Shown: positions 2,560 to 24,306 of the stretch, piece after piece
Position numbering within the stretch: position 1 is the first letter of the stretch
Layout: each line of letters begins with the position of its first letter
Origin: Candidatus Omnitrophota bacterium
Lineage (GTDB): Bacteria; Omnitrophota; Gorgyraeia; Gygaellales; Profunditerraquicolaceae
Reading direction: 5' to 3'
Assembly (NCBI GenBank): GCA_023818655.1
Contig: JAMWCI010000004.1
Coordinates: forward strand, 1 to 41,887
Length of the DNA stretch: 41,887 nt
Notes under the pieces: model-generated
Seen by the model: only the letters and a program-made list of their open reading frames with translations
Databases searched by the model: none
What the model was told of the DNA's origin: nothing
Program-made: the position numbers and the translations under genes

Positions 2560-2757
2560 ATAGAAACAAAATTAATATATAAAATATTTATGAAATTTTT
2601 TATCTCAAGGCGTCGGTATATAAATAGGGAAAGATTACATGGTTTCTGTTGAATCAATCTTATCTTCGTTGCTAAAGGTTCTCCGCAGGCTTGTAAAGAA
2701 GGTAACTAGAATCAGGATAATACCTCGGATATTCTTGATGAGATTCAGGGACATAAA

Positions 2758-3504
2758 ATGTATGTAGATACCGGAGACAGGGTTATTTCCACTCTCCTTT
2801 TAAGGGATGGCTTTTACGAAAGCCATACCACGGATTTGTTTAAGAGATTAGTAAAACCAGATATGACCATTATAGATATCGGGGCCAATATCGGATATTA
2901 CACCCTTATGGCTGCGCAATTGGCAGGTAATAAGGGAAAGGTTTACGCCTTTGAGCCAGAACCACATAATTATGATTTACTGACTAAAAACATAGCCATC
3001 AATGGGTATACTAATGTCATACCAATAAAAACAGCAGTATCAAATAAGAGCGGGACAGCTCAGCTTTTTCTTGATAGGGTCGATTTTGGCCGGCATTCTT
3101 TTTCTCAAGAGACAAATATCCGACGAGGCAGGGTTATTGAGGTAGAGACAGTTACTTTAGATGAGTTCTTTGAACAGACGGTCAGAAACTTATCGGCGCA
3201 TATTATAAAAATCGATGCCGAAGGCGCAGAAGGTATGATTATAGAAGGCGCAGAAAAGATGTTAAGAAATAAACTGAAGATTATTATGGAGTTTTTCCCG
3301 CGTGGGATTAGAAACACCGGCATAGATCCGTTGCGGCTATTGCACCGAATGCAAGATATCGGTTTCAGGATAAATACAGTAATAGACGATATCAGGCATT
3401 CTGTATTGAGCGTTCCATTAACCCGCCAAGAATTAATAGAGCTTATCGGATTGTTAGAGAACGCCAAATGCGGAGAAGCCGTGAATATTATATTTGAAAG
3501 ATAG
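2758..3504 (+). CDS. FkbM-family SAM methyltransferase (N-terminus possibly frameshifted from ATG 2639)
   Basis: DIGANIGYYT, VYAFEP and IKIDAEGAE motifs. The reading frame extends upstream as NQDNTSDILDEIQGHK to TAG 2707. Confidence 0.9.
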   Translation: MYVDTGDRVISTLLLRDGFYESHTTDLFKRLVKPDMTIIDIGANIGYYTLMAAQLAGNKGKVYAFEPEPHNYDLLTKNIAINGYTNVIPIKTAVSNKSGTAQLFLDRVDFGRHSFSQETNIRRGRVIEVETVTLDEFFEQTVRNLSAHIIKIDAEGAEGMIIEGAEKMLRNKLKIIMEFFPRGIRNTGIDPLRLLHRMQDIGFRINTVIDDIRHSVLSVPLTRQELIELIGLLENAKCGEAVNIIFER

Positions 3505-3516
3505 GATTGGGCAGAT

Positions 3517-4573
3517 ATGAATTCCGTATACTATAATATAAAAAGTTTGGCCTATGGGACAAAGAATATCCTGTTAAGATATATTAACGGAACCTTATTG
3601 AAACCAAGATGGCTTTGGTTTGAGGTTACCGATAGATGTAACTCCCGCTGTTTGCACTGTAATATCTGGTCTAAAAAGCCCAAAAAAGACATCCTGGCGC
3701 CTGTGGAAATAAAGAAGTTGCTAAGCGAGCCTCTTTTTAATGATATTGAATGGATTTTGAACGCCGGAGGCGAGCCGGCGTTAAGGGATGATTTAGAAGA
3801 AGTTATCCTCAGTCAACACGAGGCTGTCCCCAAGGCAAAAATTATGATAAGCACCAATGGATTATTGCCTGAACGTATCGTCTCTGTAGTCAAGTCAGCG
3901 ATAATAAATAAAATCAATATTTATGTGGGAACATCTATAGAAGCCATAGGCAAGGAACACGATTCAATAAGGGGCATTGCAGGAAATTTTGAGAAAGTAG
4001 ACCGGTTATTGCGTGAGCCGGTTGTCATTAGGGACACCTATAAAAACGGATTTCCGAGTTTTGGTTTTACCCTTATTGACCGGACGCTTCCTCATTTAGA
4101 GGCAGTTAAACTTTACCTAGAAAATTGGGAGTGGATTTCTTAATACAATGGCATAATCAATCTTCTTTCTTTAAGAATATGGGAGCAGACTTGGTTAAGG
4201 ATAAGGTGTCGATGGTTAAAGTAATCAGAAGGTATCCGCCTTCTCTTATTAATGATAAGGGGATTCGGTGGTTGTTAGGTAAGTCCATAAAATTTCAGTG
4301 TTTTGCTATGCACACGTTCTGTATGTTACACTGCGACGGCGATGTTAGCCATTGTCTGGGAAAATGGGATATTGTGGCGGGAAATATCCGCAAGCAATCT
4401 CCTACGATTATATGGCAAAGCGAAAAGCCGATAAAATTAGAAGAATCGTTAAGGGTTGTAGCGGCTGTCTGAATTCCTGCGCCGTTATGTGGAGCGCCGA
4501 TTCCAGTTTTTATCCAAATCTAATATTTAGAATTAAACGAAAAGGAGCCGATATCCTTTCATACTTTACATGA
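3517..4573 (+). pseudogene. Radical SAM/SPASM-twitch protein split by two frameshifts (~352 aa restored)
   Basis: CNSRCLHC and GGEP in piece 1, CFAMH..DGDVSHC..GNI in piece 2, CSGCLNSC in piece 3. Adding one A at 4121-4124 and one at 4423-4426 gives one ORF whose TGA overlaps the next ATG (4570). Confidence 0.85.
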
Positions 4574-7146
4574 AGATATGCTTGATTAATCCGCCACAAA
4601 TTCTTAACCATAAATTTGGCATACCCAATGTTTTTCAGCCGTTGGGACTTCTATACGTTGCGGCCAATTTAGAAAGAGATTTTCAAGTCGAGATAATCGA
4701 TGCCTCCTTAGAGGGATGGAATGAGCTGCGCAAGGTCGGAAATAATTATTATCTTGGGCTTGATTTTGGGGAACTGGAAGAAAGAATAAGAGATATTAAA
4801 CCAGATATTGTCGGCATCACCATTCCATTCTCCATTAATGAAAAGGGCGCGTTAAAGGTAGGCGCTATAGCCAAAGATATTGATAAGGATATAATTACGA
4901 TTTTTGGAGGCGCGCATACTTCAGTGCGGCCTTTGGAGACATTGTCTTATAAGCAGGTAGATTATGTCGTAATCGGCGAAGGAGAGGATACCGCTCTGGA
5001 ATTGATTAAAACGCTGGAGTCCAAAGATACACGTAGCATAAATGATATCAAGGGAATAGGTTATAAGCTTAACGGACAGCCAATATTGACTCCGCCGAGG
5101 GAGTGGGTACGGGATATTGATACAATTCGTATGCCCGCAAGAAACCTGATACCGATGGAGAAATATTTTATTGCCGCCAAGTTAAATAAGGCTGCGCGCT
5201 CTTTGTATAATTTTAGCGAACGCTGGACGAGCATCATCACCAGCCGGGGCTGTCCTTATCGCTGCAATTTTTGCAGCATTCATCATACTATGGGAGAAAG
5301 ATTCAGGCCGCGTAGCCCGAAAAATGTGATTGTTGAGATAAAACAGGTTGTAGAAGAGTATGGGATCAGGCATATAAATTTTGAAGATGACAATTTGACA
5401 TTGGACAAAGAGAGAGCCAAGGAAATATTCAATTTGATAGAAGAGGAAGAATTGGATATAACCTGGAGCGCGCCGAATGGAATCAGGGCTGACAGCATAG
5501 ATGAAGAGTTGGTAAGAGCGATGAAGAGATCGGGATGCAGGAGGGTTTTTGTGGCTCCGGAATCAGGGGTACAACGCATAGTTAGCGATATAATAGGAAA
5601 ACAGCTGGACCTAAGGAAAGTGGAGAAGGCGGTTATACTCTTTAATAAATACGGCATTATTGTTGACGGTTCTTTTGTGATAGGATCTATAGGAGAGACC
5701 TTGGATGATATTCATAAGACTATACGGTATGCCCTGCGTCTGAAAAGATTAGGCATGCGTCTGGCGGGTTTTCATATAGCCACGCCATATTACGGAACCC
5801 GCCTTTATAAAGAGGCAAAAGAAAAGGGATTTCTAAGAAGCGACTTTGACAGTAGTTTATTGACTACGGCAGAGCCGTCCATTATTACTCCTGAGTGGGG
5901 TATGGATGAGATAAAAAAGATGTTAAAAAAAGCGCAATGGACGGTTAATTATAATTTTAAAGAAAAAGTCATATCTTTATTATCATCGCGTCATCCCCGC
6001 GTTTATAAAACTTTAAGTTTTTTGAAAAGATTATTCTTCTACCCATTTTACCTGAGGGAGTTATGCCTCTGGTTTTATTATATTATCGCTCTATCAAAAA
6101 ATAGTTGTAAGAATCTAATATCCAGATTAGTGCGTATGCCGCCTAAGGTCAAATATATGGTTTATGAGGTTACGGATGCCTGTAATTCACAATGCCAGCA
6201 TTGTTATATATGGCGGCATAAACCTGCAGCGCATATGTTAACTCCAGACGAATTGGAAGAAATTCTTAGGGATGATTTTTTCAGCAATCTAAAAGTAGTT
6301 TTGCTTACAGGGGGAGAGCCGGTGCTCCGAGGCGATATTCACGAAATTATCTCTGTTATACATAAGGTAAGGCCGTATGCGGAGATTACCTTAAGCACCA
6401 ATGCCCTGCTACCGGAAAGAGTGCTTGAGGTTTTGCGTTATACAGTAGCCCATAATATAAAAATAAATATTGGGGTTTCCGTTGATGCGATAGGAGAAAG
6501 ACACGATTTAATCCGGGGGGTGAAGGGGAATTTTGAAAAAGCCGATTATCTATTATCGGAACTTATAAAATTGAAACAAATATACAAAGATAAAATGGGT
6601 AGCATTGTCATTGGACAGACTGTTTCTAACCTGACCGCCGATACGCTTAAGGACGTCTTATCGTATGCACAGAGATTAAATGTAGGATACCTTCCGCAGC
6701 TATATGAAGAATTCATTTATTATCATAATATAAATAATAGCCGGGCAGAAAATTACCGGCTCGCTAATAACGAGAATTTGGAAAAAGCGATTAAAGAATT
6801 ACCTCCGACTTTCCATAACGAGTTGCTGATTGAATCACTTAGACACAGACTCAGGTTCAGATGTGCCTGTCTGATGAACTTTTTTGTATTAAGATGCGAC
6901 GGTTCGGTATCGCCGTGTTTAAAGTATTCTGAAACCAAGATAGGCAACATCAGATTAAAACCTCCGTCAGAGGTTTGGAATAGCCAAGCCGCTAAAATGG
7001 CTAAGGGATTAGTGGTAAAGTGCGATGGATGTTCTAATGCCTGGGCAACTGCCTGGAGCCTGGAGGATTGTTTTTTCCCGTTTTTAAGAACCCGCATAAA
7101 AGCGGATTTAAAAGCACTTATTAAAAAAATTATGGGGAACAACTAA
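4570..7146 (+). CDS. B12-binding radical SAM enzyme fused to a second radical SAM-SPASM/twitch domain
   Basis: N-terminal LINPP..PLGLLY..GGAH..GEGE B12 domain and TSRGCPYRCNFC (Cys motif at 5251-5274). Second CNSQCQHC (6181-6204), LTGGEP, DGSVSPC and CDGC. Confidence 0.9.
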   Translation: MKICLINPPQILNHKFGIPNVFQPLGLLYVAANLERDFQVEIIDASLEGWNELRKVGNNYYLGLDFGELEERIRDIKPDIVGITIPFSINEKGALKVGAIAKDIDKDIITIFGGAHTSVRPLETLSYKQVDYVVIGEGEDTALELIKTLESKDTRSINDIKGIGYKLNGQPILTPPREWVRDIDTIRMPARNLIPMEKYFIAAKLNKAARSLYNFSERWTSIITSRGCPYRCNFCSIHHTMGERFRPRSPKNVIVEIKQVVEEYGIRHINFEDDNLTLDKERAKEIFNLIEEEELDITWSAPNGIRADSIDEELVRAMKRSGCRRVFVAPESGVQRIVSDIIGKQLDLRKVEKAVILFNKYGIIVDGSFVIGSIGETLDDIHKTIRYALRLKRLGMRLAGFHIATPYYGTRLYKEAKEKGFLRSDFDSSLLTTAEPSIITPEWGMDEIKKMLKKAQWTVNYNFKEKVISLLSSRHPRVYKTLSFLKRLFFYPFYLRELCLWFYYIIALSKNSCKNLISRLVRMPPKVKYMVYEVTDACNSQCQHCYIWRHKPAAHMLTPDELEEILRDDFFSNLKVVLLTGGEPVLRGDIHEIISVIHKVRPYAEITLSTNALLPERVLEVLRYTVAHNIKINIGVSVDAIGERHDLIRGVKGNFEKADYLLSELIKLKQIYKDKMGSIVIGQTVSNLTADTLKDVLSYAQRLNVGYLPQLYEEFIYYHNINNSRAENYRLANNENLEKAIKELPPTFHNELLIESLRHRLRFRCACLMNFFVLRCDGSVSPCLKYSETKIGNIRLKPPSEVWNSQAAKMAKGLVVKCDGCSNAWATAWSLEDCFFPFLRTRIKADLKALIKKIMGNN

Positions 7147-8519
7147 TGCCGAAAGTTTTATACATTGGTTTTGGAATCTTTCCATTAATGCAGGGTGGGG
7201 CAATAATCTATCAGGAGTCGCTGGCGGAAAGAATAAGGGAGATGGGCTGGGAGACTGTATGTTTCTTCGGTATGCCAGTATCGGATTATACTTTTAAAAA
7301 CAAGCCGTATCTTGGGGTTCGATACGTAAACGGGATTAAATTTATCGAGTTTTATAACTCTCCGAATAAAGTAGGTTATTATATTAATCCAGAACAGCAG
7401 TGTTTGGATGCATACATAGATTCCCTAACCAAAAGAGTGCTGGATGAGGAGAGGCCGGATATTGTCCATATACATGAGTTACAGATGCATACCGCATCCA
7501 CAATTGAGGTAATCCGTAAAAACAGAATCCCTGTTTTAAAGACCATACATAACTATTTTGATATATGTCCTCAACGGGATTTATTGTTTCAGGCAAAAGA
7601 GATATGCCTCGATTACAGGGAAGGAGAGAGATGCGTTGAGTGTCTGAAGAGCTTACCCATAAAAAAAGAAGCGCCATTTATAAAAAAGATACTTTGGCAT
7701 TGTATGCCAAGACGCTTATATGAAGATTTATCCATTTTTTATGGAAAAATAAAACCTCTTCACGGCAAAGGCGCGCCGGATATTCGCCAGACGTATTATG
7801 CATATCAATATGCCAAACGAAGGAAATTCTTTGTGGAGATGCTGAATAGGCTTGATATCCTTCATTGCTCTTCGCACCGCTCCGCAGAACTTCTTACGAG
7901 ATATGGGGTATTAAAAGATAAAATCAGGGTTATTCCTATTTCTGTTAAAAACATAGAAAAAATTCATCCTAAACCTCTACGGGATACCCGTCTCCCAGTT
8001 GTTTTTGGTTATATGGGGGGAGAACATTTATCAAAAGGGTACGAAATATTGATAGATGCCTTTTTAAGACTCAATCAGGCCAAGGCAAAATTGATTATCT
8101 GGGGGATGCCTAAATCAGAAAGGTTAGCCCCGAGTCCGGCTATAGAATTCAGATGGCGATATCAGCACAACGATATAAACGAAGTATTAAAAGAGATAGA
8201 CATAGGAGTTGTTCCTTCAGTTTGGGAAGAGGTATTTGGAATTATAGGGATTGAATTTTTAGCTGCCAGAATTCCGGTTATAGGCAGCAATATAGGCGGG
8301 ATACCAGAGTGGCTGAAGGATAAAGAGAACGGTTTTCTTGTCTATCCCGCAGATACTGAGGAGCTTGTTCAGAAGATGCAATTATTTATTGAAAATCCAG
8401 AATTGATTGCCCAGATGCAAGAAAATATCAAGCCGCAAAAAACACTTAATGAACATGCCGTGGAAATCATTAATTTCTATAAAGAGATAATCTCAAGGAG
8501 AAAAACGACTGAAGGATAA
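7146..8519 (+). CDS. GT4 glycosyltransferase with internal Cys cluster
   Basis: PDIVHIH, KG, PSVWEEVFG..E and GGIPE motifs. Internal ICP...C...CVEC. Confidence 0.88.
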   Translation: MPKVLYIGFGIFPLMQGGAIIYQESLAERIREMGWETVCFFGMPVSDYTFKNKPYLGVRYVNGIKFIEFYNSPNKVGYYINPEQQCLDAYIDSLTKRVLDEERPDIVHIHELQMHTASTIEVIRKNRIPVLKTIHNYFDICPQRDLLFQAKEICLDYREGERCVECLKSLPIKKEAPFIKKILWHCMPRRLYEDLSIFYGKIKPLHGKGAPDIRQTYYAYQYAKRRKFFVEMLNRLDILHCSSHRSAELLTRYGVLKDKIRVIPISVKNIEKIHPKPLRDTRLPVVFGYMGGEHLSKGYEILIDAFLRLNQAKAKLIIWGMPKSERLAPSPAIEFRWRYQHNDINEVLKEIDIGVVPSVWEEVFGIIGIEFLAARIPVIGSNIGGIPEWLKDKENGFLVYPADTEELVQKMQLFIENPELIAQMQENIKPQKTLNEHAVEIINFYKEIISRRKTTEG

Positions 8520-8522
8520 ACG

Positions 8523-9509
8523 ATGGACATGGACCTTTCAGTAATAATAGTAAGCTGGAACGTCAGGGATTTTCTCAAGAGGTGCCTTGAGTCATTGTAC
8601 AGATATACCGTAGGCATAGAATTTGAGGTTTTTGTAGTCGATAATAATTCTTATGACGCCAGTCCCGATATGGTGCGGCAGTCCTTTTCGCAGGTAAACC
8701 TCATCGTAAACAAAGATAATCTGGGATTTGCCAAAGCCAATAACCAGGCGCTTACGTTCTGCTCCGGCCGGTATATACTTTTCTTGAATCCTGATACAGA
8801 ACTCCTGGATAATTCTCTTAAGTTGATGGTGGATTTTATGGATACCCATCCAGAGGCATCTGCGGCGGGGTGCAAGCTTATATACTCGGACGGCTCTCTC
8901 CAACACAGTTGCCGCCATTTCCCTTCCTTATTCACAGACCTTATGGAGAAGCTGTATCTGGATTATGTTTTTCCCCAAAGCCCGTTTTTTAATTTTTATC
9001 GCATGGGGCTTTGGCCGCATGACACCTTAAGGAAGGTTGATGTTCCTTATGGTGCATGCATAATAATAAGAAAACAGGCAATTGATATTCTTGGGGGAAT
9101 GGATGAGCGGTTTTTTATGTACTATGATGAGATAGACCTATGTTATCGGATAAAACAGACAGGGGGTTCTGTTTATTTTATACCGGATATAAATATAGTG
9201 CATCATGCAAACCGTAGCTCTAGTCAGGTATCTTTAGAAACGCAGCAATATAAATATAGAAGCAAGTTACTCTTTTTTAAAAAGCACTACGGTATGCTCT
9301 CAGCATGGGTCCTCTTCATCAACTTGTGTTTTAACAAGCTAATTGTCTGGGGTATACTTTGGCCTATTAACGCTATCGCGGGAAGGCGCTGGGATATAGG
9401 GCATCTGAAAAGTGCTATAAGGATAGAGTGGCAGGAATATATCCGGTTTCTAAAAAACAGATTTTCTTGTCATGGGAAGTGCGATGGTCAAGGCGCAGGT
9501 GTTCGCTAA
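8523..9509 (+). CDS. GT2 glycosyltransferase (WbbL/rhamnosyltransferase-like)
   Basis: SVIIVSWN, VVDNNS, NLGFAKANN, FLNPD and DERFFMY.DE.D motifs. Confidence 0.9.
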   Translation: MDMDLSVIIVSWNVRDFLKRCLESLYRYTVGIEFEVFVVDNNSYDASPDMVRQSFSQVNLIVNKDNLGFAKANNQALTFCSGRYILFLNPDTELLDNSLKLMVDFMDTHPEASAAGCKLIYSDGSLQHSCRHFPSLFTDLMEKLYLDYVFPQSPFFNFYRMGLWPHDTLRKVDVPYGACIIIRKQAIDILGGMDERFFMYYDEIDLCYRIKQTGGSVYFIPDINIVHHANRSSSQVSLETQQYKYRSKLLFFKKHYGMLSAWVLFINLCFNKLIVWGILWPINAIAGRRWDIGHLKSAIRIEWQEYIRFLKNRFSCHGKCDGQGAGVR

Positions 9510-15620: not shown

Positions 15621-16725
15621 AACCTTGATAGAAAATTTCTATCTTTTTTCAAGAAGCTTATTGTTGTCTCCGTTGTTGGCCTTGCGCAAGACAAAGATAC
15701 CCGCAAATGACCAGATAAGAAAAATACTGCTATTGCGGCATGACAGGATTGGGGATATGGTGTTATCCACGCCTGTATTTTATGCCTTAAGACGTGGTTA
15801 TCCAAATGCCGTTATCGTCGTTTTGGCTTCCGTAAGTAATAAAGAGGTAATTAAGTATGATCCGGCGGTAAATGAGATAATTGTCTATCAAGGGATTTGG
15901 CATTTTCTTAAAGAGTTTAGGGATAAGGAAATCGATTTGGCAATAGACCTTTTTTATACCTATGAATTAAAGAGCGCATTTTTGACTTACATTTTCGGGG
16001 CAAGATACAGGATGGGATTTGAAAATGCCGGCCGGCAAATATTCTTTAATATCAAAGGGCCAAAGATAAAGCGTAGCGGCAATATGATTGAACATCTGCT
16101 TGAGCTAGTAAGTTGTTTGGGGATAGAAAAAAAAGCTATTAGACCAAGACTGTATTTACAAGAAGAGGAGAAGAATTGGGCAATAGATTATTTGAAAGAA
16201 AACGACATAGATTTAGATAAAATAACAATAGCGCTTCATCCTGGCGCATTTTTTCCTAGTCAGCGATGGCCGCTGGATAATTTTATAACGCTCTCTGATA
16301 AGATTAGGGATGAATTTGGCGCAAATATTATTTTCTTTGGAGAAAAGGATGATGAAGCATTATTAAGGCGTCACAGCGAGATTATGGGAAGCGACCGGAC
16401 TAAGCTTTTTTTTGATTTGAATCTTAGGCAGTTTATCGCTGTATTAGCCTGTTGCGACCTGTTAATATGCAATAATTCCGGACCACTGCATATCGCCTCG
16501 GCGTTGGAAATACCGACAGTTTCTGTTATGGGGCCTACCGATCCTATTTTGTGGAGTCCGACAGGCAAGGATGATACGGTGATAAGGAAAAATATATCCT
16601 GTAGCCCATGTAGCAGAGACTTTTGCTCCAGGCATGATTGTATGAGGCTAGTAACGGTTGAGGAGGTTATGGAGGTCGTAAGGTTACAGATAAAAAAGAT
16701 ATGTAGCGTAAAGGATAGGATATGA
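15610..16725 (+). CDS. GT9 heptosyltransferase-family glycosyltransferase
   Basis: DRIGDMVL, LHPGA, RWP, NNSGPLHIA and MGPT motifs, C-terminal CSPC motif. Start set to ATG 15610. Confidence 0.9.
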   Translation: MRIKTLIENFYLFSRSLLLSPLLALRKTKIPANDQIRKILLLRHDRIGDMVLSTPVFYALRRGYPNAVIVVLASVSNKEVIKYDPAVNEIIVYQGIWHFLKEFRDKEIDLAIDLFYTYELKSAFLTYIFGARYRMGFENAGRQIFFNIKGPKIKRSGNMIEHLLELVSCLGIEKKAIRPRLYLQEEEKNWAIDYLKENDIDLDKITIALHPGAFFPSQRWPLDNFITLSDKIRDEFGANIIFFGEKDDEALLRRHSEIMGSDRTKLFFDLNLRQFIAVLACCDLLICNNSGPLHIASALEIPTVSVMGPTDPILWSPTGKDDTVIRKNISCSPCSRDFCSRHDCMRLVTVEEVMEVVRLQIKKICSVKDRI

Positions 16726-17612
16726 CGACAGGATTACAAGACGCAGAAAGGAAGAATAGATGCGCCCTGTGTGGGTGTAGTCAGATAAATATATTGTATA
16801 ACCTGCCTGCTTTTAATATCATGAAATGCGAAAGGTGCAATTTTATGTTTAACGATAAATGGGATAGTTTTTCTGAGGAAACTACAATGGCAACACGAGA
16901 GAAAACTGACGCGTTAAATTCACAACGTGATTTTGAAGCAGAAAAAGAGGTTTATCGCGACAGGTTTCTCAGAGAATTGGCAGAGATATCGCGCTTGAAA
17001 AAGACAGGCAGATTATTGGATATAGGGTGTGCCTGCGGGTATTTTCTTAGGGTAGCGCAAGATACAGGATGGCAGGCTTACGGCATAGATATCGATAAGA
17101 ATGCGGTGGAATATGGAAGAAACAAATATGCCTTAAACCTCAAATATGGCGTATTAAATTACGGACAATATCCGGAAAAATATTTTGATGTGGTGACTTT
17201 GTTCCATGCCCTTGAACATATGCCTGATTTTGAGAAAGTTATATCGATTATCAAAACCATCCTGAAGGATAATGGCCTGCTGGTAATAGATGTCCCCAAT
17301 GTCAATGATTTGAGGCGAAGATTATTCGGAAGGGATTGGCCGATGTTTAGACAGGAACACTTATGGTATTTTTCAAAGCATACTCTTCAGCTACTCCTTG
17401 AAAGATACGGATTCAAGATAATAAAAACTAGATTGCACGGCGGCAGCAATATCGCGTTTAAATTGGATAAGGTTACTCATAGGGCTGCTACGGAGTTTAT
17501 AGCCAAACATTTTAGGTATATCCGCCATTTTAAACATATATTCAGACGAATATACAATTTATTGGGTTTTAACGAAGATATCCTTGTATATGCAAAAAAT
17601 ATTAATCATTAA
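16722..17612 (+). CDS. Class I SAM methyltransferase with N-terminal CxxC..CxxC Zn ribbon
   Basis: CALC...CERC, LLDIGCACG, FDVVT..H.LEH, VPN and EHLWYF motifs. Confidence 0.88.
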   Translation: MTTGLQDAERKNRCALCGCSQINILYNLPAFNIMKCERCNFMFNDKWDSFSEETTMATREKTDALNSQRDFEAEKEVYRDRFLRELAEISRLKKTGRLLDIGCACGYFLRVAQDTGWQAYGIDIDKNAVEYGRNKYALNLKYGVLNYGQYPEKYFDVVTLFHALEHMPDFEKVISIIKTILKDNGLLVIDVPNVNDLRRRLFGRDWPMFRQEHLWYFSKHTLQLLLERYGFKIIKTRLHGGSNIAFKLDKVTHRAATEFIAKHFRYIRHFKHIFRRIYNLLGFNEDILVYAKNINH

Positions 17613-18630
17613 TCTGGGCGGCATAGGCGATTTACTATTTTCCAGTGTCGCCATAAAATCGCTAAGAGAGTTGTATAAAAATTCTATCTTTGATATATTG
17701 GTTGTTGAACGGATAGCAGAAGCAGCTCAGGAGTTAGGTTTATTTGATACTGTATTTATACGTCATAAAGGTATCCTAAATACAGCAAGATTATTATCAA
17801 GATTAAGGCGCAGAAGATACGACCTGGTTGTAAATATGCGCACTATAACAGACTGGATAGGTGCAATCAAGATGTTTTTGCTTGTGAAAACAATAAACGG
17901 CTCTTGCTCAGCCGGTCGCAATACAGATAACAGGGGGTTCTTTTTTGATATTAAGGTCCCAGAAACTACCATGGGCAATCATCATGAGATGGAGTATGAC
18001 ATAGACACGGCAAGGGCGTTAGGGGCAGGGATTTGTGACAGAAAGATAGAATTGAATATAGATAAGCACCAAGAGAAGATGAAGCAGTTTTTAAGAAACG
18101 CAGGCTTAACTCAAGAGGATGTTTTGATAGGAGTGCATCCTGGCGGAAAGCCATCTCACCGCTGGCCGGTTGAGAATTTTATCAAGGTTATAGAATGGCT
18201 TGACAAAAAAATACAATGTAAGTTTATAGTTACTGGAGACGCCCAAGATAAAATTATTATAGAACAGATACGCAGAAAAACAGGGGTGAAGATAATCAAT
18301 CTTGAAGAAAGACTCAGTATAGGAGAGTTAGGCGCGTTGATAAGTATGTGCAGCCTTTATATTGCCAATGATACCGGGCCGATGCACATCGCAGCTATAC
18401 TGAATACACCGCTTGTAGCTATATTTGGTCCCGGATATATTAACCGCTTTGATCCAAGGAGCATTTCCAATAAGGCTGTGGTAATGTATAAAAGGTCAGG
18501 TTGCGCTCCCTGCGATAAGACAAGTTGCAAGAAGACAGACTGTTTAAGAAACATATCTCCGGAGGAAGTGCTGGAGGCGTCTTTAGGATTATTGCGCCAT
18601 AAGATAAGGGGAGTGGTAGAAAGACAATGA
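17590..18630 (+). CDS. GT9 heptosyltransferase-family glycosyltransferase
   Basis: GGIGD, HPGG, RWP, NDTGPMHIA and IFGP motifs, C-terminal CAPC motif. Start set to ATG 17590. Confidence 0.9.
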   Translation: MQKILIINLGGIGDLLFSSVAIKSLRELYKNSIFDILVVERIAEAAQELGLFDTVFIRHKGILNTARLLSRLRRRRYDLVVNMRTITDWIGAIKMFLLVKTINGSCSAGRNTDNRGFFFDIKVPETTMGNHHEMEYDIDTARALGAGICDRKIELNIDKHQEKMKQFLRNAGLTQEDVLIGVHPGGKPSHRWPVENFIKVIEWLDKKIQCKFIVTGDAQDKIIIEQIRRKTGVKIINLEERLSIGELGALISMCSLYIANDTGPMHIAAILNTPLVAIFGPGYINRFDPRSISNKAVVMYKRSGCAPCDKTSCKKTDCLRNISPEEVLEASLGLLRHKIRGVVERQ

Positions 18631-19313
18631 GATTTATCGCGAAGTTGTATTATTTAGTCCACACGTTAACTTCTAAGCCAGAGGAAAGAGGAGAGTATTC
18701 TGTCGGACATTGGCAGAGCCAAGTTAGGATCGAGGTATTTAATTTATGCAAAAAAATTAACGGACGGGTAGTCGAAATAGGGTGTGGCGAAGGTTTATTT
18801 CTCGTAAAGTTAGCCCAGTGTCATAACGGATTAGAGATATGGGGGTTAGATAATAACAGGAAGATACTTTCGCAGCTAAAAGATAAATCTTTGCAGGAGG
18901 GATTTGCCAATATGCATTTCGTATTGGGCGAAGCAGGGTATTTGCCATTTTCCGATGAATGTTTTGATACCGTTATTTGCATAAATACTTCTATCAATAT
19001 GCCGTCCATAGACTACCTTAAGATGGCATTGTCAGAGATGATGCGTATATGCAAAAAAGGCGGGAAGATAATTTTTGAGTACCGCAATTCGTTAAATAAA
19101 TTGCTCAATCTTAAATACAGACTGGCGCGTTATTACGATGAAACATTAGGACCGTTACCATTAAATACGTTCAGCACAGAAATGATAAATTCTTTTATAA
19201 AAAGTGCAAACTTTAGAGTATTGAATAGAAGGTTTATTCCTAAGTTTTTTGAACATCATTGGTTGAGGGCATTTTCGCCTATAATAATCGTAGAAGCAAT
19301 CAAGGAATGTTAA
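18627..19313 (+). CDS. Class I SAM methyltransferase (Methyltransf_11)
   Basis: VEIGCGEG, GLD, LPF.DE.FD and R.CKKGG motifs. ATGA overlap with the upstream GT9. Confidence 0.88.
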   Translation: MRFIAKLYYLVHTLTSKPEERGEYSVGHWQSQVRIEVFNLCKKINGRVVEIGCGEGLFLVKLAQCHNGLEIWGLDNNRKILSQLKDKSLQEGFANMHFVLGEAGYLPFSDECFDTVICINTSINMPSIDYLKMALSEMMRICKKGGKIIFEYRNSLNKLLNLKYRLARYYDETLGPLPLNTFSTEMINSFIKSANFRVLNRRFIPKFFEHHWLRAFSPIIIVEAIKEC

Positions 19314-20485
19314 AGAGAATACCTATAATAGGCGCATCGGCAAGCATAAAAGAACTTCTTTGCGCTTTCAATTTTATCCGTAGCGTTGATATCTTGGCCG
19401 AATTTGAATCTGCCTTTCTTTGCTTTGCAGGGATGAGATATGTATATATATTTGATTCGGGAACCTCATCGTTTTATTTCATCTTGAGGTCATTAAAAGA
19501 AATATCTGCACGACAGGAGGTAATCCTTCCAGCATATACGGCCGGCAGTCTTGTGGTGGCAGTTTTAAAGGCGGGCCTGAAGCCTGTATTATGCGATGTG
19601 TCACTGGAGGATTTTAATGCCAGTATAGCGTCTGTCTTAGATTCTGTTTCTGAAAAAACATTAGCCATAGTTTGCGTACATAGTTTCGGAATTGGTATGC
19701 GCCATATTCAAGAGTTAAAATCTATGGTTCCTCCAGAGGTATTCATTATAGAGGATTGCGCCCAATCGCTGGGGACCAGAATAGGAGGCAGGATTACGGG
19801 CTCTTTTGGCGATGCGGCATTTTTTAGCTTCAAGCGCGGGAAAAATATGCCCATATGCGGCGGTGGATGCGTTCTTACCAATAATCCAGAGATAGCAGTT
19901 CTGATAGAGAAAAATATCTCCCTATTAAGCAGCAACAAGTTCTTATGCGATATATTAGCTCCCTTAAAAGCGCTCGCCTTTTCAATAGGCACCAATCCTT
20001 ATGTATACGGTCTATGCTTTGGATTATCCTCGTCTTTTAGAGAAACCACACCGCCAAAGAAGATAATACCTAGAAGGATAGAAGACTTTTATATCCGACT
20101 CGGGTTAATCCTTATGCGCAGGCAAGAGGATATTTTTGTAAAGCGGCATGAGAATGGCGTTTTTCTCCTTGAATCGTTGAATAATGTAGAAGGGGTTATC
20201 TTGCCAAAGGTAGACAAGCAGGTATATCCGGTGTTTAACCGCTTTCCGCTTTTATTTAAAGAGGTTAAACGACTGGAAAAAACACAAGTGTTATTGTGGA
20301 AGAGCGGTTTTGAGAGTTCTAGGATGTATGGCAGGCCGCTGTATGATATGTTTGATTTGGGGTGCAATGGCAGGGAATTCCCGAATGCCCGGTATCTGGC
20401 AGAGCATTTGTTGACCTTACCTGTGCATCCTGCCGTAGAGCGGCAAGCACTCTTAAGGTTAGCCGCAGTTATTAAAGAGAGATGA
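19307..20485 (+). CDS. DegT/DnrJ/EryC1/StrS-family PLP aminotransferase
   Basis: SGT, EVILPAYT, VH.FG, IIEDCAQSLG, FFSF.RGK (PLP Lys) and LTLP motifs. Start set to ATG 19307. Confidence 0.88.
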   Translation: MLKRIPIIGASASIKELLCAFNFIRSVDILAEFESAFLCFAGMRYVYIFDSGTSSFYFILRSLKEISARQEVILPAYTAGSLVVAVLKAGLKPVLCDVSLEDFNASIASVLDSVSEKTLAIVCVHSFGIGMRHIQELKSMVPPEVFIIEDCAQSLGTRIGGRITGSFGDAAFFSFKRGKNMPICGGGCVLTNNPEIAVLIEKNISLLSSNKFLCDILAPLKALAFSIGTNPYVYGLCFGLSSSFRETTPPKKIIPRRIEDFYIRLGLILMRRQEDIFVKRHENGVFLLESLNNVEGVILPKVDKQVYPVFNRFPLLFKEVKRLEKTQVLLWKSGFESSRMYGRPLYDMFDLGCNGREFPNARYLAEHLLTLPVHPAVERQALLRLAAVIKER

Positions 20486-21636
20486 TACAGCGAAGAAACC
20501 TAAAGAGATTTTTAGGAAAAAGTTTTACGCAACCAGGTTACGCCTTTAAAGTGTTTACAAAGCGCTTAAGGGCCTATGCTGCCTACAGATTAAGGAGTGG
20601 CCGTAGTAGTTATCCGGAATCATTGACTATGTTTTTAACCAACAGGTGCAATCTACGTTGTAAGATGTGTGGCCAATGGGGCGATGGCGGTATTACCAAA
20701 AGATATGCGTCGAGTATTATTCAATCCGAGATTGCGTTAGATAAGCTTTATTCATTAATTGACGATATTTTCTTTTTTAAGCCAAACATTACGCTTTTTG
20801 GAGGAGAGCCATTGCTTTATGGTAATTGCATAGAGTTGATAAGTTACATAAAACAGAAAAGGATGCACTGTCTGATGATTACCAACGGCACCCTCCTTAC
20901 AGAAAAAGCAAATGAGATTGTCGCAAGCGGATTGGATGAATTGAATGTCTCATTGGACGGCGCCGGCGATCTTCATGACCAGATTCGCGGAATGCCCGGA
21001 TTATTCGCTAAAATAACCAGCGGCTTAAGATGTATACACGATATTAAGAAGAGAAATTCATACAATAAACCTTATATAAACCTGCAGTGCGCAATCAGCA
21101 GATATAATTATACGGAGTTAGAGGAATTGATAGGCGTGGCAGAAGAAACCTTTGCTGACTCTTTAACCTTTCATAATCTTATTTTTATAAACAGCGAAAC
21201 TCTGGAGCGGCAAAAAAAATACGATTCTTTCTTGAATTGCGAATCAACTGCATGGGAGGGCTTTATATCTGAACCAGGTATAGACCCCGCTATCTTATAT
21301 AACAAGATGGATAAGATATTGTCAAAACAATATCCTTTCCGCGTAGAATTTTACCCGAATTTCTCTTATCAGGGATTGAGGGATTATTACAATAGAGCCA
21401 TTTATTTTCCTCCGGAATATAAAGCAAGATGCCTGAGTCCTTGGGTGGTAGCGTACATTTTCCCTGATGGAGAAGTCAGGCCGTGTTTAAACTCCAGCTA
21501 CTCCTACGGCAATATAAAAAAGGATAGACTTACCAAACTCTGGAATAACGAAAAGGCGGTTAAATTTCGCCTCTGGCTAAAAAAAAATAAATTGTTTCCT
21601 GTATGTTGCAGATGCACTGAATTGTATAGATACTAA
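20482..21636 (+). CDS. Radical SAM enzyme with SPASM/twitch domain
   Basis: CNLRCKMC, GGEPLL, TNG, SLDG..HD.IRG and CLSPW..DGEVRPC..GNI..C.RC motifs. Confidence 0.9.
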   Translation: MIQRRNLKRFLGKSFTQPGYAFKVFTKRLRAYAAYRLRSGRSSYPESLTMFLTNRCNLRCKMCGQWGDGGITKRYASSIIQSEIALDKLYSLIDDIFFFKPNITLFGGEPLLYGNCIELISYIKQKRMHCLMITNGTLLTEKANEIVASGLDELNVSLDGAGDLHDQIRGMPGLFAKITSGLRCIHDIKKRNSYNKPYINLQCAISRYNYTELEELIGVAEETFADSLTFHNLIFINSETLERQKKYDSFLNCESTAWEGFISEPGIDPAILYNKMDKILSKQYPFRVEFYPNFSYQGLRDYYNRAIYFPPEYKARCLSPWVVAYIFPDGEVRPCLNSSYSYGNIKKDRLTKLWNNEKAVKFRLWLKKNKLFPVCCRCTELYRY

Positions 21637-21654
21637 AAAACACTGCTGCGAGAT

Positions 21655-22809
21655 ATGGATAGATTAAAAATAGCGGAGGTAGTTACGCGTATGGACTGGG
21701 GAGGCTCGCCCGATATAATAATGACCATCTGTACGGCATTGGATAAAACCAGATACGATATAAAACTTATTATCGGACCCACAGAACATCCCAGCGTTTC
21801 TACAAAGAAATTCCTGGAGGAGTTTAAAAATAACCTCATTGTAGTGCCTTGGTTAAGGAGAGATATAAATCCGTGGCGCGATCTCTTTGCATTCTTTAGG
21901 CTGTACAGTATATTTCGCAGGGAAAAATTTTATTTAGTCCATACCCATACTGCAAAGGCCGGCGCTTTGGCAAGACCAGCGGCATATTTAGCCGGAACGC
22001 GCAGAATAATCCACATGCCGCACGGACATAATTTTTACGGATATTTCAATCCTGTCACAAGCAGGTTGCTTATTTTTATCGAGCGGTTCTTAAGCAGGTT
22101 TACAACAAAAATAGTTGTGCTGAGTGAGTCTGAGAAAAGAGACTTGGTGGAATTTGGAGTTGCGGAAAAAAGTAAAATCCGCGGCATCACCTCAGGTTTA
22201 TCCTTGGGGCCGAAAGACAGAGATAGTGATTTAAGAGAGAGTAAGAGAATGGAGTTTAATTTAAGTTCTGCCCAGAAAATAGTGGGAATGGTTTCGCGTT
22301 TAGAGCCAGTCAAGGGCCCAAGCTACTTCATAAGAGCAGTCAGAGGCATAGCAGAAGAGAATCCGCAAGTAAAATTCATTATAGTCGGAGATGGCAGTTT
22401 ACGCCGCAGGTTGGAAAGGGATGTCAAAAGGTGGGGATTGAACGGCAGGGTTATTTTTACGGGATGGAGAGATGATGTTTTGGATATAATTTCTTTTTTA
22501 GACATTTTGGTGCAGCCTTCGTTGAATGAAGCTATAGGCCGGGTGCTCATTGAGGCGCAGGGGATGGGGGTTCCTGTAGTGGCCACGAGGGTAGGTGGGA
22601 TACCAGAGGTTGTGAGAGAAAATATTACGGGATTACTTGTTCCTTCCAGAGATTCGGAGAAATTGAAATTGGCAATTTCCAGTCTTCTTAAAAATGAAAA
22701 GTTAAGAAACGCAATGTCTGCGGCTGCCAGAGAATGGGTGAGCGAAAGATTTTCTGTTAAAAAGATGGTCAGCGAAATCGATTCTATCTATAGTGAGGTA
22801 GCGCAGTGA
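21655..22809 (+). CDS. GT4 glycosyltransferase
   Basis: VHTHTAKAG, SRLEPVKG, PSLNEAIG..IEA and VGGIPE motifs. Confidence 0.92.
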   Translation: MDRLKIAEVVTRMDWGGSPDIIMTICTALDKTRYDIKLIIGPTEHPSVSTKKFLEEFKNNLIVVPWLRRDINPWRDLFAFFRLYSIFRREKFYLVHTHTAKAGALARPAAYLAGTRRIIHMPHGHNFYGYFNPVTSRLLIFIERFLSRFTTKIVVLSESEKRDLVEFGVAEKSKIRGITSGLSLGPKDRDSDLRESKRMEFNLSSAQKIVGMVSRLEPVKGPSYFIRAVRGIAEENPQVKFIIVGDGSLRRRLERDVKRWGLNGRVIFTGWRDDVLDIISFLDILVQPSLNEAIGRVLIEAQGMGVPVVATRVGGIPEVVRENITGLLVPSRDSEKLKLAISSLLKNEKLRNAMSAAAREWVSERFSVKKMVSEIDSIYSEVAQ

Positions 22810-23489
22810 TTGTCTCTGTGCATCAGCCGCAGTATCTTCCATGGCTGGGGTATTTTCATAAGATATGTCAGAGCGATATTTTTGTATTTCTGGATAATGT
22901 ACAGTATAAACACAGGGAGTATCAGAATCGCAACCGGATAAGGACGAGTAATGGTTGGATGTGGCTTACGGTCCCCATTATAAAAGGACATGCGTATCCC
23001 AATATCTCAGAAGTTTATATAGATAATTCTCAGGGATGGAGCAGGAAGCACTGGAGGGCCATTACCTTAAACTACGCCCAGGCGAGTTTTTTTAACACTT
23101 ATAAAAGTTTCTTTAACGACCTGTATGGGATGCAATGGGAGCGGTTGATAGATTTGAATATATACATTATAAAAAAGATTAACGAATTTCTGGGGATAAC
23201 TAAAAAAATATACTTTGAATCCGAGCTTAATATAAAAACAATTAATACGCAACGCATTATTGACATATGCAAGACCTTAAAGGCGGATACTTATCTTTCT
23301 GGAAGCGGAGGGAAAAACTATCTAAACGAGGAACTTTTTAGGAGTAATAATATTAAGCTGGTGTATCAAGATTTTAGACATCCCGAATATGCTCAACGCT
23401 ACCAAGGTTTCGTTCCTTTTATGTCTGCCATAGACCTCTTGTTTAACCACGGTCCGGATTCATTGCGTATCTTACTTAGTAGTACCTAA
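22806..23489 (+). CDS. WbqC-family protein
   Basis: HQPQYLPWLGYF, D.VQY, NRNRI, YLSG.GG.NY and S.IDLLFN.G motifs. Confidence 0.92.
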   Translation: MIVSVHQPQYLPWLGYFHKICQSDIFVFLDNVQYKHREYQNRNRIRTSNGWMWLTVPIIKGHAYPNISEVYIDNSQGWSRKHWRAITLNYAQASFFNTYKSFFNDLYGMQWERLIDLNIYIIKKINEFLGITKKIYFESELNIKTINTQRIIDICKTLKADTYLSGSGGKNYLNEELFRSNNIKLVYQDFRHPEYAQRYQGFVPFMSAIDLLFNHGPDSLRILLSST

Positions 23490-23616
23490 GAGTTTTGTTT
23501 TTGTTGAATGTGCTGTAGGATACGCACTAGGAGTTTTCGACACTCTGTGCCTAGCATATCTCAAAGTGTATTTAATGTAAAAAATATAACGCATTAGTAA
23601 GATTTTAAGAAAATGT

Positions 23617-23646
23617 TTGCTGTTAGTTCGATGGGTATGATATAAT
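23617..23646 (+). promoter_or_regulatory. Sigma70 promoter for the PIG-L/WecA-like pair
   Basis: TTGCTG, 18-nt spacer, extended -10 TGaTATAAT. AGAGG SD before ATG 23689. Confidence 0.65.
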
Positions 23647-23688
23647 AAAAAATAAATACTTATACTTAAATAAAAGGATATAGAGGTT

Positions 23689-24306
23689 ATGAATATCTTG
23701 GCAATTGGTTCTCATCCGGACGATATAGAGTTTGGTTGCGGCGGTTCCCTTCTAAAATATAGTAGAAACGGCCACTCTGTTTTCCTCTTAATCTTGACAG
23801 ATGGTAGTTTTGGAGGCAACCCTAAGATACGCATAAAAGAACAGGAGGCTGCCGCGAAGTTTATTAAGACAAAAAATATTTTCTGGGGTGGATTTAAAGA
23901 TACAGAATTAGTTGGCAGCAGGGAGTTGATATTAAAGATAGAAAGAGTGGTGCAGAGAGTTTCGCCGGATATTGTTTTCTTAAATTATTGGGACGATGTT
24001 CATCAGGATCATCGCGCCGCAGCCAGCGCCGGCGTATCTGCCACACGTTACATCAAAGAAGTTCTTTTTTACGAGGTTCCTACGACGCAGAATTTTACTG
24101 CGGATATTTTTGTAGATATAACCAGCGTACTTAAAAGCAAGCTGAAGTTACTCTCCATACACCGCTCGCAAGTATCTAAGACCGGAGTAGAGAAACTCTC
24201 TATCTTGGAAAGCGCCATCTCCTGCGCTAATTACCGGGGATTTCAAGCGCGGGTCAAGTATGCAGAGGGATTCAAGGCCTCCAGGTTTTTAATGGATATA
24301 GCATGA
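23689..24306 (+). CDS. PIG-L/LmbE-family N-acetylsugar deacetylase
   Basis: HPDDIE.G.GG, R..E, D.HQDH, H.SQ and YAEGF motifs. Confidence 0.92.
   Translation: MNILAIGSHPDDIEFGCGGSLLKYSRNGHSVFLLILTDGSFGGNPKIRIKEQEAAAKFIKTKNIFWGGFKDTELVGSRELILKIERVVQRVSPDIVFLNYWDDVHQDHRAAASAGVSATRYIKEVLFYEVPTTQNFTADIFVDITSVLKSKLKLLSIHRSQVSKTGVEKLSILESAISCANYRGFQARVKYAEGFKASRFLMDIA

Follow-up and report, generated by a model that had tools for sequence, protein, structure and literature searches.

A probable Wzx/Wzy-type surface-polysaccharide locus with an undescribed radical SAM tailoring layer in an Omnitrophota bacterium

The stretch of DNA analysed here, referred to as the window, is a complete contig of 41,887 bp (C141; JAMWCI010000004.1) from a metagenome-assembled genome (MAG) of a Candidatus Omnitrophota bacterium (G000; 1.57 Mb in 147 contigs, 42% GC, 91% complete). 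Every large open reading frame (ORF) lies on the + strand. Pfam and NCBIfam scans of every + strand ORF of 100 aa or longer reveal one co-directional, tightly coupled array spanning positions 3-25325, with 10 glycosyltransferases (GTs), five S-adenosylmethionine (SAM) methyltransferases (MTs), four radical SAM (rSAM) domains, and DegT, WbqC and PIG-L genes. We consider it probable that the window holds most of a Wzx/Wzy-dependent locus of about 30 kb for an exported surface polysaccharide, and that its rSAM enzymes tailor the glycan. An initial annotation had placed a glycan locus at 2639..24306. That locus is real but runs further, from base 3 at least, where the Wzy and Wzx genes lie, to the end of a WecA-like gene at 25325. 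The gene census of the annotation (about nine GTs, five MTs, four rSAM domains, DegT, WbqC and PIG-L) is borne out, the GTs numbering 9-10.

The array begins with a Wzy_C-domain membrane protein, a putative polymerase whose 5' end is cut by the contig start (3..956; PF04932, 36.4 bits; 54% identity to residues 144-460 of the L037 Wzy), followed by a Wzx-type flippase (946..2559; PF01943/PF03023/PF13440). Codes such as L037 and L093 denote gene regions in other genomes, and G001, G009, G025 and G078 are other MAGs. An FkbM-family MT of 248 aa comes next (2758..3504; PF05050 84 bits and TIGR01444 112 bits, over cut-off); its L037 orthologue (8537-9898, 52% identity) is a 453-aa protein with an extra N-terminal class-I MT domain, hence the 198-nt gap at 2560-2757 may be the remnant of an MT domain. 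There follow an rSAM/SPASM-type gene with a CxxxCxxC motif, read in frames 0, 2 and 1 and thus either a pseudogene or an assembly error (3517..4572), an 858-aa fusion protein with two rSAM domains (4570..7146), and the glycosyltransferases GT4a (7146..8519, 457 aa; PF00534/PF13439) and GT2a (8523..9509; PF00535). A GT-C-like membrane protein of ~605 aa (9472..11278) then precedes a class-I MT (11289..11951; Methyltransf_11; 50% identity to L040 11904-12593), GT4b (11927..13057; PF00534, 147 bits; 41% identity to L040 12590), a further Methyltransf_11 class-I MT (13069..13725), GT4c (13728..14855, the ATG at 13728 being the likely start) and GT2b (14859..15620; 44% identity to the GT2 part of L041 15168-17084).

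The 3' part of the array starts with GT9a of the heptosyltransferase family (15583..16725; PF01075 131.6 bits; TIGR02195 140.3 bits against a cut-off of 134.6). It continues with a class-I MT (16722..17612; Methyltransf_23), GT9b of the same family (17590..18630, ORF from 17584; PF01075 92.1 bits; TIGR02195 99 against 134.6), a class-I MT (18627..19313; Methyltransf_25), a DegT-family aminotransferase (19307..20485; PF01041), a 384-aa rSAM protein with a twitch-like C-terminal domain (20482..21636; Pfam rSAM and SPASM) and GT4d (21655..22809; PF00534, 141 bits). A 227-aa WbqC-family protein (22806..23489; PF08889, 271.5 bits), a PIG-L-family de-N-acetylase (23689..24306; PF02585, 86 bits) and a WecA/MraY-family polyprenyl-phosphate N-acetylhexosamine (HexNAc)-1-phosphate transferase, the presumed initiator (24303..25325; PF00953 109.5 bits; TIGR02380 98.5 bits, below cut-off), complete the locus. 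Hence four GT4, two GT2 and two GT9 genes lie within 2639-24306, the ninth GT is the WecA-like gene that starts at the previously reported end of the locus, and the tenth is the GT-C-like protein, made of two ORFs without Pfam match. The translational coupling noted previously as ATGA-type is confirmed by 4-nt ATGA/GTGA overlaps at 16722, 18627, 20482, 22806 and 24303; the fusion and GT4a genes share 1 nt at 7146. Just two gaps reach about 200 nt, at 2560-2757 and 23490-23688. The density of GTs is high, with 9-10 in 22 kb as against 25 GT-class ORFs in the other 1.52 Mb of G000. A WecA-like protein, Wzx, a Wzy_C protein and 10 GTs in one coupled array thus uphold the earlier assignment to a surface glycan.

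The centre of the locus is occupied by a cassette of Wzx, the 858-aa fusion, GT4a and GT2a, joined in some copies by the MT and GT4b, which is common to MAGs of at least six other phyla at 39-67% identity. Pfam, the family alignment and a structure model together divide the fusion into a B12-binding and rSAM half (residues 1 to ~475; PF02310 69.2 bits, and PF04055), a long linker helix (476-520) and an rSAM plus SPASM/twitch half (~525-858). The N-terminal half thus has the class B radical SAM architecture, a B12-binding Rossmann domain with an rSAM core containing CxxxCxxC. We found 25 other full-length members of the family (824-872 aa, 46-64% identity), in MAGs labelled Omnitrophica, Deferribacteres, Firestonebacteria, Spirochaetota and Thermodesulfobacteriota, which carry the database name 'radical SAM protein' only. 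Both CxxxCxxC motifs (C228/C232/C235 and C538/C542/C545) and the four C-terminal cysteines (C765/C783/C818/C821) are invariant in all 26 aligned sequences.

The genes around the fusion are conserved with it. An orthologous Wzx (40-56% identity) lies upstream in all seven genome loci with a full-length fusion, and a GT4a orthologue (45-62%) lies directly 3' of the fusion in six of them (L037, L039, L040, L041, L042 and L043), mostly overlapping or abutting. GT2a has orthologues (39-57% identity) in L040, L042, L038 and L046. The closest syntenic locus comes from a MAG labelled Omnitrophota. The two halves occur as separate genes in L045, from a MAG of the Woesearchaeota (archaea of the DPANN group), and in L046, where GT4a adjoins the split halves. 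In L045 the halves are neighbours, 48% and 40% identical to those of the window; another Woesearchaeota contig, L048, holds DegT, MT, GT2, GT4, B12-rSAM, SPASM, PIG-L and GT9 genes. The presence of the same gene classes on these contigs hints at sharing across domains.

A full-length fusion orthologue was found in none of the 40 closest relatives, in which the best match is 48% over the N-half and that in the same-genus genome is 41%. The same-genus MAG, G001 (fusion match of 41% over the N-half), gives a best WecA match of 31% and no WbqC match with the window query, so the content of the locus is not kept within the genus. Furthermore, the window Wzx matches the Wzx of the cassette-less locus L093 at merely E 3.9e-10, whereas the Wzy proteins of the two loci match at E 5e-98, indicating that Wzx travels with the cassette. 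From these identities and the patchy presence of the fusion we read its distribution as probable horizontal transfer.

The structure model of the fusion (pLDDT 91.5, pTM 0.61) shows the long helix connecting the two halves. Fold neighbours of the N-half are class B rSAM enzymes of both kinds, methylases (TsrM, MgmA, CysS, TokK) and non-methylases (AprD4, OxsB), while the C-half superposes on SkfB, CteB, anSME, SuiB and BlsE. In sequence, the nearest solved relative of the N-half is AprD4 (E 1e-18, a superfamily-level match), and its NCBIfam scores all fall under the respective cut-offs, the best being Sden_1168 (210.5 against 575), followed by HpnJ (166 against 577.6), with BchE (146.1 against 481) and AprD4 (90.6 against 500) also matched. 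AprD4 is not known to use cobalamin. The pathway had been called oxygen-sensitive and B12-dependent. The first attribute is what the known behaviour of rSAM [4Fe-4S] clusters would lead one to expect; B12 dependence is a possibility, the fold fitting B12 methylases and the non-B12 AprD4 about equally and CobS (PF02654) not being found in the 91%-complete MAG. G000 holds at least seven B12-binding-type rSAM ORFs. If these use cobalamin, the organism would need to scavenge it, given that CobS was not found.

In contrast to the variable centre, the 3' block (GT9-MT-GT9-MT-DegT-twitch rSAM-GT4-WbqC-PIG-L-WecA in the window) is conserved in the family. Five larger regions (L093-L097), selected from the WbqC match list by the length of their contigs, were compared. 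The order GT9-GT9-MT-DegT-rSAM-GT4-(unknown)-WbqC-PIG-L-WecA recurs in L093, L094 and L095; the block is partial in L096, which runs from the MT onward to the contig end, and in L097, which has no separate DegT and GT4d matches. GT9a is kept in L093, L094, L095 and L097, GT9b in all five (E 1e-74 to 1e-110), the MT directly upstream of DegT likewise in all five, and GT4d in L093-L096. DegT and the rSAM gene, which overlap by 4 nt in the window, are adjacent in 4 of the 5 relatives. Of 151 genomes from the taxonomic order, 43 have a WbqC gene, G000 being one of them, and the gene order WbqC-PIG-L-WecA is kept in 9 of 12 loci examined. In many relatives a protein of ~480-500 aa without Pfam match lies directly upstream of WbqC (L094 3917-5359, L095 16189-17688, L082-L089); it is absent from the window.

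Two chemical leads emerge from this block. The first concerns the coupled DegT and 384-aa rSAM proteins. Besides C56/C60/C63, the rSAM protein has no more than five cysteines in its C-terminal part, a number that suggests a single auxiliary cluster. Its PDB matches are BlsE (1.4e-8) and BtrN (1.4e-5, over residues 315-370 only), both at superfamily level, and it scores 85.8 with the twitch NCBIfam model against a cut-off of 170. DegT keeps the invariant pyridoxal phosphate lysine Lys179 and Asp150, and scyllo-inositol and 2-deoxy-scyllo-inosose aminotransferases take ranks 2 to 4 among its PDB matches. The suggestion that the chemistry resembles that of aminoglycoside biosynthesis thus receives weak but consistent support, from AprD4 for the B12-type half, from BlsE and BtrN for the 384-aa protein and from the inosose aminotransferases for DegT.

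The second lead concerns WbqC, which has a compact HUP fold like that of class-I aminoacyl-tRNA synthetases and is a putative ligase acting on a sugar amine. The first structural match of its model (pLDDT 91.9) is BshC (4wbd_A; VIA Z 13.6, root-mean-square deviation 3.3 A over 216 of 227 residues; Foldseek probability 0.99, E 0.022), followed by class-I lysyl-tRNA synthetase (Z 11.3), GluRS/GlnRS (8-9) and MshC (6.8). A single-sequence search of the PDB gave chance-level matches only (E >=0.5) and a profile search of it none. The best NCBIfam match of PIG-L is BshB1 (109.8 bits against a cut-off of 182.5) and the second-best of GT4d is BshA (120.8 bits against 273.7). This combination of a BshC-like fold with BshB1- and BshA-like neighbours suggests a step in which the primer sugar is deacetylated and then religated, and WbqC may be a minimal BshC-type ligase that re-acylates the de-N-acetylated primer sugar. 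The original wbq cluster, that of E. coli O121, makes an N-acetylglycyl amino sugar, with which such a step would agree.

The type of the locus is indicated by genes upstream of it. Wzy-Wzx in L037 (Omnitrophota) and L040 (Nitrospirae) come after genes for Wza-type export and Wzc-type chain-length/P-loop proteins, and L037 has in addition an AAA_22 ATPase and an HD protein upstream of Wzy. L093 (from G078) is a contiguous set of 18 genes in the order NTP_transf_5, Wza, Wzc, AAA_22, HD, Wzy, Wzx, GT4, GT4, GT9, GT9, MT, DegT, rSAM, GT4, WbqC, PIG-L, WecA. Inspection of the upstream flank, as proposed in the initial annotation, led by synteny to a second contig of G000, C104 (5.2 kb), which carries Wza, Wzc, the AAA_22 ATPase and HD in the L037 order, 53-76% identical to L037. 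This contig ends in the start of a membrane-protein ORF, a candidate Wzy N-terminus, and C141 begins inside Wzy. The Wza (OPX) and Wzc (PCP-2a) genes are thus outside the window and present on C104 in the order of L037 and L093. Hence the complete locus would be of the Wza/Wzc-exported type and ~30 kb long, as judged from the upstream genes in L037, L040 and L093 and on C104. Collectively, the locus would have a family-conserved scaffold (Wza-Wzc-ATPase-HD on C104, then Wzy and the 3' block) around a variable centre that contains a cassette found in other phyla.

From the gene content, the product looks like an exported exopolysaccharide (EPS) or capsule rather than specifically lipopolysaccharide (LPS), which the initial annotation had named along with a surface glycan; with Wza and Wzc upstream in the syntenic loci and on C104, LPS is not the best reading. 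The LPS alternative is nevertheless the strongest of those considered, although we regard it as unlikely. It holds that the locus builds O-antigen and outer core, with the Wzy_C protein acting as polymerase or as a WaaL-type ligase that places the product on lipid A-core. Wzx (PF01943/PF13440) and the PF04932 protein are both present, and the Wzy_C (O-antigen ligase) domain alone cannot separate a polymerase from a ligase. WecA-initiated Wzx/Wzy loci are the classical O-antigen design, two GT9 genes of the heptosyltransferase family are present, one over the TIGR02195 cut-off, and G000 encodes LpxC, the Kdo transferase WaaA and a GmhA close to its cut-off (208.4 against 209.45 bits), because of which the link to LPS stands as a rival. 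Against it, the Wza and Wzc genes (the latter with a P-loop kinase domain) that lie directly upstream in L037, L040 and L093 and on C104 mark capsule or EPS export and not O-antigen, and a second GT9 cluster of G000, on C62 (three GT9 and one GT4), is the better candidate for a core locus.

Downstream of the locus, on the same strand (25572-41886), lie rplM-rpsI and then an amino-acid biosynthesis array with argC, argJ, argB, argD, argF, argG, argH, lysA, dapF, dapA, dapB and one aminotransferase. Between dapA and dapB is an STT3-like (oligosaccharyltransferase/GT-C) gene at 37464-40076, present as three ORFs of 129, 330 and 299 aa, whose orthologues in relatives are single ORFs of 835-877 aa (G001:C7, 50% identity); another STT3-like ORF of G000 (844 aa) is on C68. 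These genes bear on a second alternative, that the glycan is transferred en bloc to proteins, either by the Wzy_C protein as a PglL-type O-oligosaccharyltransferase or by an STT3-like enzyme. Wzy_C domains occur also in O-oligosaccharyltransferases, one STT3-like gene lies 13 kb downstream and the other on C68, and a unit made by ~10 GTs is long for a repeat unit. We nonetheless judge this very unlikely, since the upstream Wza and Wzc genes favour export of a polymer and the STT3-like gene of the window, itself split into three, is set apart from the locus by intervening genes for ribosomal proteins and amino-acid biosynthesis.

Returning to an exported polysaccharide tailored by rSAM enzymes, the annotation had named the lack of conserved linkage between rSAM or MT genes and GT/Wzx loci in relatives as a finding that would refute its reading. 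Such linkage was found in the same genus, family and order. A two-domain B12-rSAM query was run against G000 and 40 relatives; each of the 41 genomes gave 2-24 matches, which often lay in clusters. Twenty regions around such matches in relatives were taken, nine as best per genome and eleven for long ORFs or clusters, and phmmer searches with window exemplars found GT or WecA genes in 13/20 and GT or DegT in 15/20, 13/20 being a biased frequency given that the regions were chosen around rSAM or WbqC matches. By the same method, glycan genes were found at 3/28 control loci of distant B12-rSAM homologues in other phyla. Pfam annotation of seven regions showed classical Wzx loci with GT, MT and NDP-sugar genes around B12-type rSAMs, including L019 from the same genus, so that B12-type rSAMs lie inside Wzx-type loci within the same genus, family and order.

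Furthermore, rSAM and glycan domains recur in single chains. L029 has one ORF of 1383 aa with GT2, B12-binding, rSAM and GT4 domains, and L030 a B12-rSAM-MT fusion. Among the 120 best matches to the L029 protein are 8 clusters with the architecture GT2+B12+rSAM+GT4, 13 with GT2+B12+rSAM, one with B12+rSAM+GT4 and five with GT4+rSAM+SPASM. These fusions and the recurrence of the fusion-Wzx-GT4-GT2 cassette across phyla extend the linkage. In G000 outside the window, 5/19 rSAM ORFs have a GT within 5 kb as against 6.6% of background ORFs (permutation p ~0.007), a modest enrichment in which the ORFs of one cluster are not independent. Two further arrangements were seen in relatives. L034 10463-14785 (G025:C1) is an ORF of 1440 aa with three tandem SPASM-type rSAM units, beside B12-type rSAM genes of 656-789 aa. 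L017 1470-15721 (G009:C2) has four alternating pairs of class-I MT and B12-type rSAM genes with one GT2 among them, and 3' of these pairs a 596-aa ORF without family, a carbamoyltransferase and an SxtJ-like protein.

The same linkage speaks to a third alternative, by which the rSAM and MT genes are merely co-located with the glycan genes and act on a ribosomal peptide, a membrane lipid or the polyprenyl carrier. SPASM/twitch and B12-type rSAMs are best known from pathways for lipids and for ribosomally synthesised and post-translationally modified peptides, peptide maturases (SkfB, CteB, anSME) and lipid enzymes (HpnJ and the ladderane family) are among the closest named entries in NCBIfam and the PDB, and 14 of the 19 other rSAM ORFs of G000 have no GT within 5 kb. 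However, translational coupling of the fusion to Wzx and GT4a leaves no space for a precursor gene, GT-rSAM fusions recur in single chains, Wzx, GT4 and GT2 stay with the fusion across phyla, and the coupling of DegT to its rSAM is conserved, so that we hold this explanation, too, to be very unlikely.

Some reading frames of the array are broken in the MAG sequence. At 3517-4572, the rSAM gene can be read only by changing frame twice, whereas an intact orthologue of 351 aa lies at L037 9917-10972 (61-62% identity); public contigs cover the frameshift sites (bins 4005-4606) only in part and showed no indel where they do. The ORFs 9472-10635 and 10505-11278 make up one GT-C-like protein with one frame change near 10348, its N-terminal part having several transmembrane segments and its C-terminal part being soluble. 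Neither half has a Pfam or NCBIfam match; an Atlas lead (score 0.98) connects the protein to PMT_2/DUF2142 GT-C enzymes. Over 10226-10577, one public contig differs from the window only by an additional 11 bases behind 10348; by coordinate arithmetic, these bring both ORFs into the same frame, beyond the final stop codon of the second frame. Contig depths at this site are 3.1-6.4, mostly 3-4, making consensus indels plausible, and the 'broken' genes are hence not to be read as decay. The three-way split of the STT3-like gene may be another assembly indel, and frameshifts elsewhere in the G000 assembly warrant caution. One RNA run compared with the window yielded no contigs on it, a result that speaks neither for nor against expression. 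The least probable of the alternatives, a decaying island without a defined product, can point to broken frames in 3517-4572 (two shifts), 9472-11278 (one) and 37464-40076 (three ORFs), but is countered by the 11 bases that restore the frame at 10348, by depths of mostly ~3-4 with likely consensus indel errors, and by the remaining 21 array genes, which are intact and tightly coupled.

The initial annotation had also noted that the window has no NDP-sugar genes. This is right for the contig, on which six-frame searches gave zero matches to PF01370 and PF00483, but elsewhere in G000 the same searches gave 15 and 8 matches over cut-off, respectively. With these matches on other contigs, and with the contig starting inside the locus, the absence is one of the contig and not of the pathway. 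Combinations of GT, rSAM, MT and DegT genes occur on further contigs of G000 (C106, C110, C118, C139, C102 and C62); C106, for example, has GT2, DegT, GT9, GT9, MT, DegT, MT and two SPASM rSAMs, and C62 the GT9 cluster mentioned above. As C106, C62 and the others combine the same gene classes, G000 probably carries several such loci, fragmented by the assembly.

Several observations weigh against a Wza/Wzc-exported polysaccharide with rSAM tailoring. C104 and C141 have no shared overlapping sequence, and their adjacency comes from synteny alone. G000 has the LPS genes LpxC, WaaA and, just under its cut-off, GmhA, and GT9 is an enzyme family typically involved in building the LPS inner core. 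The frequency of glycan genes around rSAMs in relatives carries the bias of choosing regions by rSAM or WbqC matches, and the 14 of 19 rSAM ORFs of G000 without a nearby GT point the other way, many of them being on short contigs. The fold search with the N-half fits methylase, dehydratase and rearrangement chemistry alike, TsrM, AprD4 and MgmA all scoring ~E 1e-22; the AprD4, BlsE and BtrN similarities are at the level of the superfamily; and all matches to named rSAM, Bsh and PEP-CTERM NCBIfam families are below their cut-offs. Lastly, the rSAM gene at 3517-4572, the GT-C gene and the nearby STT3-like gene are interrupted in the assembly.

A putative route can be drawn for the polysaccharide. 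WecA would transfer HexNAc-1-phosphate onto undecaprenyl phosphate, PIG-L would take off the N-acetyl group, and the BshC-like HUP-fold protein WbqC would join another carboxylate or an amino acid to the freed amine, following the logic of bacillithiol and mycothiol synthesis. The twitch rSAM could oxidise a sugar C-OH to a ketone, which the coupled DegT would transaminate, as in the BtrN/BtrS logic, so that an NDP-4-keto sugar would not be needed. The unit would be lengthened by GT4, GT2 and GT9 enzymes and O- or N-methylated by class-I MTs. The 858-aa fusion would subject the sugar on which GT4a acts to two radical reactions, the first being perhaps a C-methylation or an HpnJ/AprD4-like rearrangement or dehydration, and the second perhaps an oxidation, epimerisation or decarboxylation. 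The cassette Wzx would flip the unit and Wzy polymerise it; the GT-C enzyme may add a periplasmic branch, and Wza and Wzc would export the polymer.

Comparison with known systems places the locus as a known general kind, a Wzx/Wzy surface-polysaccharide locus, with an undescribed tailoring layer. Like Wzx/Wzy capsule and EPS loci with Wza-Wzc (E. coli group 1 capsule, colanic acid and XrtA/PEP-CTERM EPS), it has an initiating transferase, Wzx, a Wzy_C protein and many GTs, with Wza and Wzc upstream in the syntenic loci and on C104 and an AAA_22 ATPase that is best matched by an XrtA/PEP-CTERM one. It differs in having three rSAM genes with four rSAM domains, including a two-rSAM fusion, and five MTs in the assembly line, as well as GT9 genes, which are unusual in EPS loci. 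From XrtA/PEP-CTERM EPS systems G000 differs further. No match to an exosortase (EpsH/XrtA, PF09721) was found in the 91%-complete genome, and scores are below cut-off: the best match of the AAA_22 ATPase is the XrtA/PEP-CTERM system ATPase, the L037 orthologues score 118.9 against 180 (TIGR03027) and 216.1 against 324.5 (TIGR03015), and the window GTs 151-188 against 409 (TIGR03088).

The tailoring genes recall aminoglycoside pathways (BtrN with BtrS/R, GenK/GenD1, AprD4) in that a twitch-type rSAM is coupled to a DegT protein with inosose aminotransferase relatives and AprD4 is the nearest solved sequence relative of the B12-type half. In contrast to these small-molecule pathways, they lie in a Wzx/Wzy polymer locus initiated on undecaprenyl phosphate, the similarities are at superfamily level (BtrN E 1.4e-5; AprD4 model 90.6 against 500), and the Pfam scan found no 2-deoxy-scyllo-inosose synthase in the window. 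The adjacent GT4d, WbqC and PIG-L genes, with BshA, BshC and BshB1 as matches, resemble bacillithiol and mycothiol synthesis, where BshA/MshA is the GT4, BshB/MshB the PIG-L deacetylase and BshC/MshC performs ligation to the sugar amine. They differ in that all scores are below the family cut-offs, WbqC has 227 aa against 540 aa for BshC and no sequence similarity to it, and the triad is tied to WecA and a polymer locus and not to a thiol pathway. The order of glycosyl transfer, de-N-acetylation and a B12-binding-domain rSAM is shared with the hopanoid side-chain pathway, HpnJ, whose ring contraction to a cyclitol ether is its last step, being the second-best model for the N-half. Here too the window differs, with a score far under the HpnJ cut-off of 577.6, a deacetylase of the PIG-L family, a carrier that is presumably undecaprenyl phosphate and not a hopanoid, and an N-half fused to a second rSAM.

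In the sections of the literature that deal with them, HpnI (a GT), HpnK (a deacetylase) and HpnJ (a B12-type rSAM) act in sequence on lipid-linked GlcNAc and several B12-type rSAM enzymes are described as non-methylases (PMC12583986, PMC9204698), while GenK-type C-methylation of sugars is given as an established activity of the class (PMC9204698). A term search of the latter, a 2022 review of cobalamin-dependent rSAM enzymes, did not return the word 'polysaccharide', and a 2026 Omnitrophota preprint, in its relevant part, merely notes the co-occurrence of the GT group 1 and radical SAM Pfam domains in long proteins. Full-text searches, judged by title and abstract and not covering subscription journals, found no description of B12-type or SPASM rSAMs in polysaccharide loci or of the function of WbqC.

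A wider proposal, which we put forward tentatively and at somewhat less than even chances, is that anaerobic, mostly uncultured lineages have recruited B12-type and SPASM/twitch rSAMs as routine tailoring enzymes of polyprenyl-linked surface polysaccharides, that the fusion cassette is mobile and that WbqC is a minimal BshC-type ligase. These lineages may include Omnitrophota above all, and also Woesearchaeota, Elusimicrobia, Nitrospirota, Firestonebacteria, Spirochaetota and Armatimonadota. The mobile cassette may install a C-methyl, ring-contracted (cyclitol-like) or deoxy-amino sugar made by no described polysaccharide pathway.

To our knowledge, rSAM sugar chemistry is known from small molecules (aminoglycosides and nucleoside antibiotics) and hopanoids and not from polysaccharide assembly lines, in which rSAM enzymes would gain a new substrate class. 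The conserved cassette and the GT-rSAM fusions provide defined proteins for enzymology. The fold link between WbqC and BshC gives a testable function to a widespread O-antigen-cluster family and may inform the BshC reaction, which as far as we know has not been reconstituted in vitro. If rSAM enzymes do modify lipid-linked glycans, anoxic habitats would harbour a large and unexplored range of surface polymers with C-alkyl groups or other radical modifications, and a functional context would emerge for the B12-type rSAM paralogues of Omnitrophota, many of which are unassigned.

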